A stretch of DNA of 64,000 bases from Escherichia coli (GTDB lineage Bacteria; Pseudomonadota; Gammaproteobacteria; Enterobacterales; Enterobacteriaceae), in assembly GCF_050920415.1 (NCBI RefSeq), contig NZ_CP169309.1, one strand, 5' to 3'. The translations under genes and the position numbers were made by a program. The notes beneath the pieces were generated by a model, which did no database searches, was not told the DNA's origin, and saw only the letters and a list, made by a program, of their open reading frames with translations. Positions 20,043 through 55,647 of this stretch are shown in pieces; positions within the stretch are counted from its first letter, which is position 1, and each line of letters begins with the position of its first letter.

Positions 20043-20160
20043 CGTCCGCGTCGCTTTCCGCGCGTGGGCGTTGGCGTGACTCATCGCGCTGATGTATTAT
20101 GGCGCGCTATCCATCCGGGCAGGCGCCTGGCTGATTGTTTCCCCCGAAGTCACCAAGATC

Positions 20161-20454
20161 ATGGCCAAAGAACAAACGGACCGTACGACATTAGATCTGT
20201 TCGCGCACGAGCGTCGACCGGGACGACCGAAAACTAATCCGCTTTCGCGCGATGAACAGCTGCGTATTAATAAACGCAACCAGCTAAAACGCGACAAAGT
20301 ACGTGGCCTTAAGCGTGTCGAACTGAAGCTAAACGCGGAAGCTGTCGAGGCGCTGAACGAGCTGGCGGAATCGCGCAATATGAGCCGTAGCGAACTGATC
20401 GAAGAGATGTTAATGCAGCAACTGGCGGCGCTGCGTAGTCAGGGCATCGTTTAA
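20161..20454 (+). CDS. ybfE: YbfE (LexA-regulated small protein; CopG/RHH-like C-terminus)
   Basis: [33 protein letters not shown]...; internal ATG chosen. Confidence 0.8.
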
Positions 20455-20593
20455 ATTTCCACTTTCATGTAGCACAGTGTGCAGTCCTGCTCGTTTGCTG
20501 ATTCCGCAAGACTGCCTGTTCTGCTATGATTGCCTTTATCCGTGGGCAATTTTCCACCCCCATTTCAATAAGTTTCAAGAGGTTATTTCACTC

Positions 20594-21124
20594 ATGGCTA
20601 TCACTGGCATCTTTTTCGGCAGCGACACCGGTAATACCGAAAATATCGCAAAAATGATTCAAAAACAGCTTGGTAAAGACGTTGCCGATGTCCATGACAT
20701 TGCAAAAAGCAGCAAAGAAGATCTGGAAGCATATGACATTCTGCTGCTGGGCATCCCAACCTGGTATTACGGCGAAGCGCAGTGTGACTGGGATGACTTC
20801 TTCCCGACTCTCGAAGAGATTGATTTCAATGGCAAACTGGTTGCGCTGTTTGGTTGTGGCGACCAGGAAGATTACGCTGAATACTTCTGTGACGCATTGG
20901 GCACCATCCGCGACATCATTGAACCGCGCGGTGCAACCATCGTTGGTCACTGGCCAACTGCGGGCTACCATTTCGAAGCATCAAAAGGTCTGGCAGATGA
21001 CGACCACTTTGTCGGTCTGGCTATCGACGAAGACCGTCAGCCGGAACTGACCGCTGAACGTGTAGAAAAATGGGTTAAACAGATTTCTGAAGAATTGCAT
21101 CTCGACGAAATTCTCAATGCCTGA
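20594..21124 (+). CDS. fldA: Flavodoxin 1
   Basis: [27 protein letters not shown]...; 176 aa. Confidence 0.95.
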
Positions 21125-21329
21125 TGTGATGCGGCGTAGACTCATGTCTACGCCGTATTAATAGATAATGCCAATCAAAATAATTGCTACAAATTTGTAA
21201 CTTTTGCTGTTGTACCTGTACAATGTCCCGGTGTTCAAGTGGCCTTGCCGTTGTAAATGTAAGCTGTGCCACGTTTTTATTAACAATATTTGCCAGGGAC
21301 TTGTGGTTTTCATTTAGGCGTGGCAATTC

Positions 21330-21348
21330 TATAATGATACGCATTATC
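21330..21348 (+). promoter_or_regulatory. Fur-box-like 19-mer in the fur leader/promoter
   Basis: tataatgatacgcattatc against the remembered consensus GATAATGATAATCATTATC; overlaps a TATAAT hexamer and the uof start. Confidence 0.5.
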
Positions 21349-21420
21349 TCAAGAGCAAATTCTGTCACTTCTCCTAATGAAGTGAACCGCTTAGTAACAG
21401 GACAGATTCCGCATGACTGA
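21334..21420 (+). CDS. uof: uof, 28-codon upstream ORF translationally coupled to fur
   Basis: MIRIISRANSVTSPNEVNRLVTGQIPHD; stop overlaps the fur start. Confidence 0.6.
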   Translation: MIRIISRANSVTSPNEVNRLVTGQIPHD

Positions 21421-21859
21421 TAACAATACCGCCCTAAAGAAAGCTGGCCTGAAAGTAACGCTTCCTCGTTTAAAAATCCTGGAAGTTCTTCAGGAGCCGG
21501 ACAACCATCACGTCAGTGCGGAAGATTTATACAAACGTCTGATCGATATGGGTGAAGAAATTGGTCTGGCTACGGTATATCGCGTACTGAACCAGTTCGA
21601 CGACGCTGGTATCGTCACCCGCCACAATTTTGAAGGCGGTAAATCCGTATTTGAACTGACACAGCAACATCACCACGATCACCTGATCTGCCTCGACTGC
21701 GGCAAGGTTATCGAATTTAGTGATGATTCCATCGAAGCGCGTCAGCGTGAAATTGCCGCAAAACATGGCATTCGCCTGACTAACCACAGTCTCTATCTTT
21801 ACGGTCACTGTGCCGAAGGCGATTGCCGCGAAGATGAGCACGCGCACGAAGGCGAATAA
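21413..21859 (+). CDS. fur: Ferric uptake regulator
   Basis: MTDNNTALKKAGLKVTLPRLKILEVLQEPDNHHVSAEDLYKRL...; 148 aa. Confidence 0.95.
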   Translation: MTDNNTALKKAGLKVTLPRLKILEVLQEPDNHHVSAEDLYKRLIDMGEEIGLATVYRVLNQFDDAGIVTRHNFEGGKSVFELTQQHHHDHLICLDCGKVIEFSDDSIEARQREIAAKHGIRLTNHSLYLYGHCAEGDCREDEHAHEGE

Positions 21860-21878
21860 GCCAGTCTGAACGAGAAAA

Positions 21879-21902
21879 GCCAACCTGCGGGTTGGCTTTT
21901 TT
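21879..21902. terminator. Bidirectional terminator between fur and chiQ
   Basis: gccaacc/ggttggc stem, tgcg loop, T6 run; A-run on the other side. Confidence 0.75.
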
Positions 21903-21942
21903 ATACAAGGGACATAAGAAAAGCGAGAGTTACAGCTCTCAC

Positions 21943-22269
21943 TTATTTGTTATTGCTGCGAATTTCCTGCCAGACCTTATCACAATCGGTTTTCACTGCC
22001 TGGTCATTACCGGTTTGCGTTGCCTGAATGCACTGCTGATAATCCAGCACACGGACACTTTCCTGCTCGGCAAATTGCTGATGTTGTTTCTCTTTCTTCA
22101 GCACGTTTAACACGCTCTGACAGGCTTCAATTTTTTCCGGCGAACCTTGCGCGGTGTTGATACAGGCGCTGTAAGCTTCTTTCAGATGGCTGTCTTCCTG
22201 TGGCGCGGTGGATTGTGCACAAGCCACCAGCCCCGATGCCATCATGGCGATGAGAATCAGTTTTTTCAT
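21943..22269 (-). CDS. chiQ: ChiQ lipoprotein
   Basis: MKKLILIAMMASGLVAC lipobox; 108 aa; downstream of chiP. Confidence 0.85.
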   Translation of the reverse strand: MKKLILIAMMASGLVACAQSTAPQEDSHLKEAYSACINTAQGSPEKIEACQSVLNVLKKEKQHQQFAEQESVRVLDYQQCIQATQTGNDQAVKTDCDKVWQEIRSNNK

Positions 22270-37461: not shown

Positions 37462-38886
37462 ATGACCAAAAAACTCCATATTAAAACCTGGGGCTGTCAG
37501 ATGAACGAGTACGATTCATCGAAGATGGCCGATCTGCTGGATGCCACCCACGGCTATCAACTGACCGACGTGGCGGAAGAAGCGGATGTGCTGCTGCTGA
37601 ACACCTGCTCAATCCGCGAGAAGGCTCAGGAAAAAGTCTTCCATCAGTTGGGTCGCTGGAAACTGTTAAAAGAGAAGAATCCAGACCTGATTATCGGCGT
37701 CGGCGGCTGCGTGGCATCGCAAGAAGGCGAGCACATTCGCCAGCGCGCCCACTATGTTGATATTATTTTTGGGCCGCAAACACTGCACCGTCTGCCGGAG
37801 ATGATCAACTCCGTACGCGGCGACCGCAGCCCGGTTGTAGATATCAGCTTCCCGGAAATCGAGAAGTTTGACCGTCTGCCGGAACCGCGTGCCGAAGGAC
37901 CAACCGCGTTTGTCTCCATCATGGAAGGCTGCAATAAATATTGCACCTACTGTGTGGTGCCTTACACCCGTGGTGAAGAGGTAAGCCGTCCTTCCGACGA
38001 TATTCTGTTTGAGATTGCCCAGCTTGCGGCTCAGGGCGTGCGTGAAGTCAACCTGCTCGGTCAGAACGTGAACGCCTGGCGTGGTGAGAACTACGACGGC
38101 ACCACCGGATCGTTTGCCGATCTGCTGCGTCTGGTTGCGGCGATCGACGGGATCGATCGTATTCGCTTTACCACCAGCCATCCGATCGAATTCACCGACG
38201 ATATCATCGAAGTGTACCGCGACACGCCGGAGCTGGTGAGCTTCCTGCATCTGCCGGTTCAGAGCGGTTCCGATCGCATTCTAAACCTGATGGGACGTAC
38301 CCACACGGCGCTGGAGTACAAAGCGATCATCCGTAAATTGCGTGCGGCGCGTCCTGATATTCAGATCAGTTCTGACTTCATTGTCGGCTTCCCGGGCGAA
38401 ACCACCGAAGACTTCGAAAAAACGATGAAGCTGATTGCCGACGTCAATTTCGACATGAGCTACAGCTTTATCTTCTCCGCTCGTCCGGGTACACCAGCCG
38501 CCGATATGGTTGATGATGTTCCGGAAGAAGAGAAGAAGCAGCGTCTGTATATTCTGCAAGAGCGCATTAATCAGCAAGCGATGGCATGGAGCCGCCGTAT
38601 GCTCGGCACCACCCAGCGTATTCTGGTAGAAGGTACATCGCGTAAGAGCATCATGGAGCTTTCCGGTCGTACTGAAAATAACCGCGTGGTTAACTTCGAA
38701 GGCACGCCGGATATGATCGGTAAATTCGTCGATGTAGAAATTACCGACGTCTATCCGAACTCTCTGCGCGGTAAAGTGGTGCGAACTGAAGATGAAATGG
38801 GTCTGCGCGTGGCAGAAACACCGGAATCGGTGATTGCCCGTACCCGCAAAGAAAATGACCTGGGCGTGGGTTATTATCAGCCGTAA
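37462..38886 (+). CDS. miaB: tRNA-i6A37 methylthiotransferase (radical SAM)
   Basis: 474 aa; CxxxCxxC radical-SAM motif (CNKYCTYC). Confidence 0.95.
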
Positions 38887-54506: not shown

Positions 54507-54663
54507 ATAATTTATCCTTAAACATTTATTTAATGAATGTAAACTACATTGCGAGACTCAGTTATTTATACTTTTCTGACGCAACATAATACGCATAAAA
54601 TAAGGCTTACGCAAAAATGGAATACATAAAAATATAATATGTTTTATCTACAACCATAAGGAA

Positions 54664-55647
54664 ATGATAATGATTTTTACGTCAAGTTGCTGCGATAATT
54701 TATCAATAGATGAGATTATCGAACGTGCTGAAAAAGGCGATTGCGAGGCTCAATATATTGTTGGGTTTTATTATAATCGCGATAGCGCAATTGACTCTCC
54801 GGACGACGAAAAGGCCTTTTACTGGCTGAAGCTGGCCGCTGAGCAAGGTCATTGTGAAGCACAATATTCCTTAGGGCAAAAGTATACCGAGGATAAAAGC
54901 CGTCATAAAGATAATGAGCAAGCCATCTTTTGGCTGAAAAAAGCAGCCCTACAAGGACATACTTTCGCTTCCAACGCCCTTGGCTGGATACTGGATCGTG
55001 GAGAAGACCCCAACTATAAAGAAGCGGTTGTCTGGTATCAGATAGCCGCGGAGAGCGGAATGTCTTATGCGCAAAATAATCTTGGGTGGATGTACAGAAA
55101 TGGCAACGGAGTCACACAAGATTATGCGCTGGCATTTTTCTGGTACAAACAAGCTGCATTGCAAGGCCATAGTTACGCACAAGACAATCTGGCCGATCTT
55201 TATGAAGACGGTAAAGGTGTTGCTCAAAACAAGACACTCGCCGCATTCTGGTATTTGAAAAGCGCACAGCAGGGTAATCGGCATGCCCAGTTTCAAATTG
55301 CATGGGATTATAACGCTGGCGAAGGGGTGGACCAGGACTATAAGCAAGCGATGTACTGGTATCTGAAGGCTGCCGCTCAGGAAAGCGTCGGCGCTTACGT
55401 TAACATCGGCTATATGTATAAACACGGTCAAAGCGTTGAGAAGGATTATCAGGCCGCCTTTGAATGGTTTACGAAAGCCGCTGAATGCGATAATGCCACT
55501 GCCTGGTATAACCTTGCCATTATGTATCATTACGGAGAAGGAAGACCTGTCGATCTCCGACAGGCTCTCGATCTGTATCGTAAAGCTCAGTCATCCGGTA
55601 CCAGGGATGTCAGTCAAAAAATCCGTGAGATTGAAGATTTACTGTAG
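54664..55647 (+). CDS. ybeQ: YbeQ, Sel1-repeat protein (about 8 repeats)
   Basis: 327 aa; tandem Sel1/TPR-like repeats, no signal peptide. Confidence 0.85.
   Translation: MIMIFTSSCCDNLSIDEIIERAEKGDCEAQYIVGFYYNRDSAIDSPDDEKAFYWLKLAAEQGHCEAQYSLGQKYTEDKSRHKDNEQAIFWLKKAALQGHTFASNALGWILDRGEDPNYKEAVVWYQIAAESGMSYAQNNLGWMYRNGNGVTQDYALAFFWYKQAALQGHSYAQDNLADLYEDGKGVAQNKTLAAFWYLKSAQQGNRHAQFQIAWDYNAGEGVDQDYKQAMYWYLKAAAQESVGAYVNIGYMYKHGQSVEKDYQAAFEWFTKAAECDNATAWYNLAIMYHYGEGRPVDLRQALDLYRKAQSSGTRDVSQKIREIEDLL

Follow-up and report, generated by a model that had tools for sequence, protein, structure and literature searches.

The closest described counterpart of the site analysed here is the operator of the fur promoter of Escherichia coli K-12 (de Lorenzo et al. 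1988). It appears under the name 'fur' in the tabulated sites of Chen et al. 2007, where positions 709931-709960 are listed as a DNase I footprint credited to de Lorenzo 1988. Autoregulation of fur is reported in the literature (PMC7867234 among other sources) and the Fur box has been placed over the -10 element of the promoter named Pfura (PMC7867234). A translational layer of control is known from the uof-fur leader (Vecerek, Moll and Blasi 2007; NF011344), with the promoter Puof upstream of the small open reading frame uof and Pfur inside it (PMC6191717). At low iron, both RyhB and inefficient decoding of a UCA codon are reported to weaken the coupling of uof and fur translation (PMC6191717 and PMC11448259 among other sources); the Fe-S methylthiotransferase MiaB is reportedly required for the decoding of this codon, the sixth of uof (PMC11448259). 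RyhB was found to lower the short fur mRNA and not the uof-fur mRNA, and its regulation is abolished in the RyhB G44C45 mutant (PMC6191717). At the transcript level, a ybfE-fldA-uof-fur operon with three promoters has been described (Conway 2014).

Outside E. coli, the Fur box TATAATGAGACGCAATTGA of Yersinia enterocolitica (PMC7867234) has the same TATAATGAGACGCA core over a predicted -10 element, about 84 nt before fur, but its right arm is poorer (58% consensus identity). According to its authors, uof is absent from this species (PMC7867234). In our own reading of the Yersinia enterocolitica 19-mer, the frame opened by its ATG stops after four codons (ATG AGA CGC AAT TGA).

Examination of the window, by which we mean the whole 64,000-nucleotide stretch of E. 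coli DNA that was analysed (contig NZ_CP169309.1), revealed the same gene order as in K-12, namely ybfF-ybfE-fldA-uof-fur, followed by chiQ and chiP in opposite orientation. The gene fldA (20595-21124) is followed by a 289-bp intergenic region, then by fur, and then by chiQ and chiP. The site under study is the known Fur autoregulatory operator overlapping the known uof leader, and its existence was thus already established. Locus and 19-mer are the same as in K-12 and there is no operator difference; the 51 bases upstream of the K-12 start 709939 (Kim 2012) end in TATAATGATACGCA, just as the corresponding stretch of the window does. An 801-bp region of the locus has a match covering at least 80% in 5,424 of 5,426 complete E. 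coli genomes, and in the best eight matching records listed the reading frame is named 'uof: fur leader peptide' (RefSeq). The coordinates of the features are collected in Table 1.

Table 1. Positions in the window of the operator, promoters, transcript starts and reading frames of the fldA-uof-fur region (v3, K-12 v3 coordinates; SMRT-Cappable-seq entries are those among the rows listed).
Feature	Position	Strand	Source	Details
19-bp Fur box TATAATGATACGCATTATC	21330..21348	.		from -13 to +6, counted from the Pfur start
Published Fur footprint (DNase I), fur promoter	21322..21351	.	Chen 2007 Table 3, as tabulated	mapped to the window
Pfur core promoter	21307..21335	+		-35 TTTTCA (21307-12), 17-bp spacer, -10 TATAAT (21330-35)
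Main fur TSS	21343	+	two datasets	70-nt leader; 9 nt past the first base of the uof ATG
K-12 709939	21343		Kim et al. 2012 suppl. file 2	count 46; 5'UTR 70 nt
710716 (v3)	21343		SMRT-Cappable-seq, PMC6131387	transcript with b0683 (fur) only
K-12 709876	21406		Kim et al. 2012	count 28
Puof	21195..21231	+	promoter scan	TTGTAA (21195-200), 18-bp spacer, TACAAT (21219-24), TSS 21231; 9/12 matches
K-12 710051	21231		Kim et al. 2012	count 8; assigned to uof; 5'UTR 103 nt
K-12 710082	21200		Kim et al. 2012	count 5
Distal TSSs, read-through into uof and fur	20108..20538	+		ybfE 20108; fldA 20486 and 20538
710796 (fldA TSS)	20486		Kim et al. 2012
711521 (v3)	20538		SMRT-Cappable-seq, PMC6131387	b0684|b4637|b0683; fldA-uof-fur read-through
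711951 (v3)	20108		SMRT-Cappable-seq, PMC6131387	b0685|b0684|b4637|b0683; ybfE-fldA-uof-fur read-through
GC-rich hairpin, no T-run	21132..21155	+	read from sequence	just after the fldA stop; candidate leaky terminator
uof, 28-codon leader ORF MIRIISRANSVTSPNEVNRLVTGQIPHD	21334..21420	+	RefSeq 'fur leader peptide'	ATG 21334-21336, TGA 21418-21420
uof codon 6, UCA	21349..21351	+	PMC11448259	MiaB-dependent decoding reported
GAGCAA	21353..21358	+		candidate for pairing with RyhB nt 42-47, among them G44 and C45; on short and long transcripts
fur Shine-Dalgarno AGGA	21399..21402	+	71-leader alignment	10 nt before the fur ATG; columns invariant
fur coding sequence	21413..21859	+	RefSeq annotation	NF006999 308.8 bits, cut-off 146

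The leader itself shows no structural difference from the published uof-fur leader, having the same 28 codons, the same overlap of the uof stop with the fur ATG and the same UCA at codon 6; what the comparative data presented below add is a lineage-restricted reading frame apparently free of peptide-level constraint. The uof ATG is embedded in the -10 hexamer of Pfur as TATAATG, the Fur box covers the first five codons (MIRII), and the terminal TGA overlaps the fur ATG (21413-21415) within ATGACTGA. The peptide matches the NCBIfam equivalog NF011344 over residues 1-28 of 28 (81.3 bits, cut-off 71). Codon 14 (21373-21375) is polymorphic, being CCT (Pro) in the window strain, TCT (Ser) in K-12 and E. 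albertii, and TTT (Phe) at a further locus (L004); such variation within E. coli and Escherichia fits a missing constraint on the peptide. The gene miaB is found in the same window (37462-38886, + strand; TIGR01574, 738.7 bits), 16 kb from uof.

The match of TATAATGATACGCATTATC to the Fur consensus GATAATGATAATCATTATC exceeds chance. Sixteen of the 19 positions are identical, and no other site on either strand of the 64-kb window matches the consensus with three mismatches or fewer (0.02 expected from 100 shuffles). A symmetrised 19-bp position weight matrix (PWM) was built from 11 other footprinted Fur sites (Chen et al. 2007, Table 3), the fur site being excluded and the coordinates of the training sites being moved to K-12 v3 with offsets checked against gene positions. 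The fur-promoter site scores 18.65 bits with this matrix, a value that falls among those of the 11 training sites (12.6-22.5 bits), and ranks second among 63,982 window positions; 200 first-order Markov simulations of the window gave 0.02 hits at that score. The first-pass annotation of this DNA, made from the letters, had proposed a Fur-box-like operator overlapping the start of uof in the fur leader, a reading that sequence, shuffles and matrix all bear out. Its estimate of about 15 of 19 consensus matches was right as to the strength of the match and wrong as to the exact count, and the score by which it had suggested judging the site is not low with the present matrix. The TATAAT hexamer and the ATG of the 28-codon uof lie inside the 19-mer, and the uof stop overlaps the fur start, just as it had described. 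Its two background statements are also in agreement with published work: the autoregulation of fur with the literature and with the footprinted site as tabulated in Chen et al. 2007, and the coupling of fur translation to RyhB through uof with PMC6191717 and PMC11448259, among other sources.

The best PWM match of the whole window is another sequence, GGAAATGATAATGATTTTT, at 54660-54678, which reaches 20.5 bits and thus stands above the fur operator. Situated between the divergent genes ybeR and ybeQ, it covers the ribosome-binding site and the annotated ATG (54670) of the latter. We know of no Fur regulation of ybeQ.

The published footprint was placed on the window by means of a +777 offset from the old K-12 coordinates to v3 (fur at 709423-709869 versus 710200-710646), the window position being 732059 minus the K-12 v3 position. 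Mapped in this way, the tabulated footprint is centred on the 19-mer and spans -21 to +9 relative to the start site. Its 30-bp sequence has a match of at least 99% identity in 5,295 of 5,426 complete E. coli genomes. Occupancy in vivo is less uniform: within the portion of the nine-strain Fur ChIP-exo supplement that was available, one peak row names uof,fur, in strain KO11, and that file holds no MG1655 peak coordinate beginning 7099, 7100, 7107 or 7108, that is, none at fur. The own 24-site model of Chen et al. 2007, which had the fur site among its training sequences, predicted two sites here, the better of which reached 12.3 bits and thus stood at the lower end of the footprinted sites. 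Because of this low published score and of the ChIP-exo peak in one of nine strains, repression at the fur promoter is likely weak and autoregulation modest. The Fur boxes of fepA-fes, entC, fhuF and cir follow the same 19-bp inverted-repeat logic and occupy the same position over core promoter elements, but they comprise three to four overlapping sites of 17-23 bits; the two predicted sites and lower maximum at the fur promoter fit a much weaker repression than at these iron-uptake promoters.

Pfur has the hexamers, the 17-bp spacing and the mapped start, at 21343, of a sigma-70 promoter. A promoter scan found 10 of 12 consensus matches in its hexamers, both of which belong to stretches conserved across at least 80-95% of 71 aligned Enterobacterales leaders. 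A search by eye upstream of Pfur gave no convincing match to a CRP site. Such a site is reportedly present there. The start at 21343 is common to two independent datasets, one of them cap-specific, in the rows listed for the latter. Since it falls past the A of the uof ATG, Pfur transcripts cannot encode uof. According to the same data, as far as they are listed, the uof ATG is carried by transcripts from 21231, which begin 7 nt after the TACAAT hexamer of Puof, by those from 21200 and by read-through from fldA and ybfE, and is left out of the dominant transcript from 21343. Only the longer, less abundant transcripts can therefore encode uof. Which transcripts include the uof start, those reading through from fldA or those of a fur-proximal promoter, was a question that the first-pass annotation had left open. 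The public TSS data, in the rows listed, answer it with a fur-proximal start that lacks the uof start and with read-through that carries it; far from beginning downstream of 21336 in every case, transcripts also start at 21231, at 21200 and at the fldA and ybfE promoters.

The GC-rich hairpin that follows fldA was not called by a terminator scan, and it probably permits read-through, because read-through isoforms are present among the listed SMRT-Cappable-seq rows. A further 5' end, at 21406, lies 7 nt before the fur ATG and downstream of the fur Shine-Dalgarno sequence, and is absent among the SMRT-Cappable-seq rows listed; it may be a true TSS, whose mRNA would be almost leaderless, or else result from processing. 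A weaker PWM match of 11.0 bits, GATAATGCCAATCAAAATA, is found at 21164-21182, shortly before the -35 element of Puof. We take the OxyR site of the fur region to lie around these same positions, and Puof and the fldA promoters are said to be driven by OxyR and SoxS.

A Fur-protein scan with one genome per species yielded 80 Enterobacterales loci. The core TATAATGA[G/T/A]ACGCA is present 70-92 nt before fur in 71 of them, from Escherichia to Pantoea and Erwinia. Alignment of 71 unique leaders revealed conservation of the -35 region, of AATTCTATAATGA, of ACGCATT and of the Shine-Dalgarno and start region of fur, and none of the columns of uof codons 6-15. The Fur box scores 16-18.6 bits in Escherichia, Citrobacter, Salmonella and Enterobacter, the only group in which the right arm ATTATC is well conserved, and decays to 3-10 bits in Pantoea and Erwinia, where the -10/+1 core is kept. 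Because TATAATGA-ACGCA is retained across the order even at such low scores, its conservation is that of the promoter and not of Fur binding, the Fur box being an additional layer in the enteric core group.

In 44 of 65 unique leaders, the frame that begins at the embedded ATG runs without a stop as far as the fur start; a control frame does so in 27 of 65 (Fisher p 0.005, not corrected for phylogeny). Among the 44 open frames, 32 end at ATGACTGA, seven end at ATGA in another frame and five run past the fur ATG; leader length equals 1 mod 3 in 38 of the 65, with steps of 79, 82 and 85. Truncated forms of the ORF occur in Salmonella enterica arizonae, Klebsiella oxytoca, Raoultella, Atlantibacter, Pantoea, Erwinia and Edwardsiella; it comprises only 4-16 codons in Pantoea, Salmonella arizonae and Klebsiella oxytoca, its ATG still being within the conserved -10 element. 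A codon-periodicity test for peptide-level selection on uof detected none (entropies 0.42/0.51/0.49 and 1.40/1.24/1.54 by codon position), only 8 of 65 leaders have an SD-like tetramer ahead of the ATG, and of 49 orthologous ORFs open to fur only 15 have UCA as their sixth codon. This pattern fits a leader ORF that would act through being translated and not through its peptide, and it also fits the confinement of such a role to a subset of Enterobacteriaceae.

Several variants of this arrangement were observed. In Mangrovibacter, Cedecea neteri, Enterobacter sp. Ag1 and one Buttiauxella, the ORF that starts at TATAATG lies in another frame than E. coli uof and ends on the fur start (ATGA); the loci with a frame ending at ATGA are L017, L025, L033, L054, L057 and L064. 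In Dryocola, Enterobacter sp. R1 and two Buttiauxella (L055, L056, L058 and L061), it is in frame with fur and, if translated, would give an N-terminally extended Fur. Inside E. coli uof, in the +1 frame, there is a mini-ORF, ATG AAG TGA, at 21377-21385. Where the leader is 1 nt shorter, as in Salmonella arizonae and Citrobacter sedlakii, uof reads into the frame of this mini-ORF and stops at its TGA, 27 nt before fur, by which the overlap with the fur start is removed.

Very probably, the 19-mer serves as the operator through which Fur acts on the fur-proximal sigma-70 promoter Pfur, being placed over its -10 element and start, and uof can be translated only from the longer transcripts. Iron-loaded Fur bound over the -10 hexamer and the start site would compete with RNA polymerase, an arrangement that would result in negative autoregulation. 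We infer occlusion from the geometry of the operator and of the footprint, which is the standard one for this mechanism. In the long RNAs, the transcribed Fur box would supply the uof AUG together with the codons for MIRII, and uof would be translated only from the Puof transcripts (21231 and 21200) or from fldA and ybfE read-through. The overlap of the uof stop and the fur start in ATGACTGA would then allow translational coupling.

The resemblance to a Fur box could also be incidental, arising from a perfect -10 hexamer within promoter DNA rich in A and T, with negligible binding of Fur in the cell. Such an origin would account for the conservation of TATAATGA-ACGCA whatever the quality of the Fur box (3-10 bits in Pantoea and Erwinia versus 16-18.6 in Escherichia, Citrobacter and Enterobacter), and it would agree with the low published score and with a ChIP-exo peak in one of nine E. 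coli strains in the supplement as available. We nevertheless regard it as very unlikely, given that the tabulated DNase I footprint is centred on exactly this 19-mer, that a matrix from which the fur site was excluded scores it within the training range, and that the right arm CATTATC, which is unneeded for a -10 element, is near-invariant in E. coli. A binding site of Fur need not, for all that, serve Pfur initiation. Because the starts at 21231, 20538 and 20108 (the last two from the SMRT-Cappable-seq rows listed) precede this site by about 100 to about 1,200 nt, bound Fur would stand in the path of upstream polymerases, and its main role could be that of a roadblock or isoform selector at 21330-21348 which thins the Puof, fldA and ybfE transcripts and sets the amount of uof-mRNA. 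The presence of full-length fldA-uof-fur and ybfE-fldA-uof-fur molecules among the single-molecule sequencing rows listed argues against such a role, as do the little-changed level of fldA in fur-deletion RNA-seq, a measurement that is informative neither for read-through nor for fur itself, and the classical occlusion geometry over -10 and +1, so that a roadblock is highly improbable as the main function.

Occlusion of Pfur by Fur, the preferred reading, leaves the standing of uof to be weighed: it might have no function of its own as an ORF, with an ATG that is fixed only as part of TATAATG and an open frame that is incidental. The ATG does belong to an order-wide -10 element even where the ORF is very short, and the lack of codon periodicity, the rarity of SD-like tetramers and a main TSS that leaves out the ATG are all what one would expect of an incidental frame. 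The literature, however, reports uof translation, coupling to fur and control by RyhB. The frame is open more often than the control frame in a comparison uncorrected for phylogeny, the in-frame class of leader lengths is favoured, and some frame-shifted genera still end the ORF on the fur start. On balance, an incidental frame seems to us quite unlikely, and we retain uof as a leader ORF that would be translated from the longer transcripts.

Predictions of how RyhB meets this leader were less specific. The duplex of GAGCAA with RyhB was predicted at -12.9 kcal/mol in a windowed calculation and was not the best match; with the RyhB core, windowed prediction gave several near-equal sites between 21230-21279 and 21336-21365, and for this reason no firm RyhB site was assigned. 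A whole-molecule prediction of the RyhB-leader duplex was rejected, as it returned an unrealistic duplex of 83 nt. In a published benchmark, the reported interaction of RyhB with the fur leader was likewise not predictable. Neither the short leader (21343-21440, z -1.19) nor the long one (21231-21440, z +0.58) folded better than its shuffles, and folding of both leaders gave no support for a strong sequestration of the fur ribosome-binding site. As RNA, the Fur-box palindrome (21331-21347) is predicted to form a hairpin, AUAAUG paired with CAUUAU around a 5-nt loop, of about -2.5 kcal/mol; the uof AUG is in its stem, which is among the few pairs kept in the centroid of the 210-nt leader. An Rfam search of 20400-22000 found nothing relevant, its two sub-threshold matches being attributable to chance.

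Since the -10 element, the Fur box and the uof AUG share bases, we also considered whether the choice of promoter decides if Fur synthesis comes under uof-type control, a tentative proposal to which we attach a rather low likelihood and which is not stated explicitly in the literature examined. If true, Fur occupancy would set the ratio of two differently regulated species of fur mRNA. Coupling and UCA decoding would then apply to the long transcripts that start at Puof, fldA and ybfE, and the Fur-repressed Pfur transcript would bypass uof, yet it is the isoform that RyhB lowers (PMC6191717).

The operator and the leader being known, the value added by the present analysis is modest and lies in an explicit isoform map and in the comparative picture across Enterobacterales. 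Because the dominant fur mRNA starts inside uof, the uof/RyhB/MiaB layer as originally described can act only on the minority of longer transcripts, and quantitative models of Fur homeostasis should treat the fur mRNA isoforms separately.
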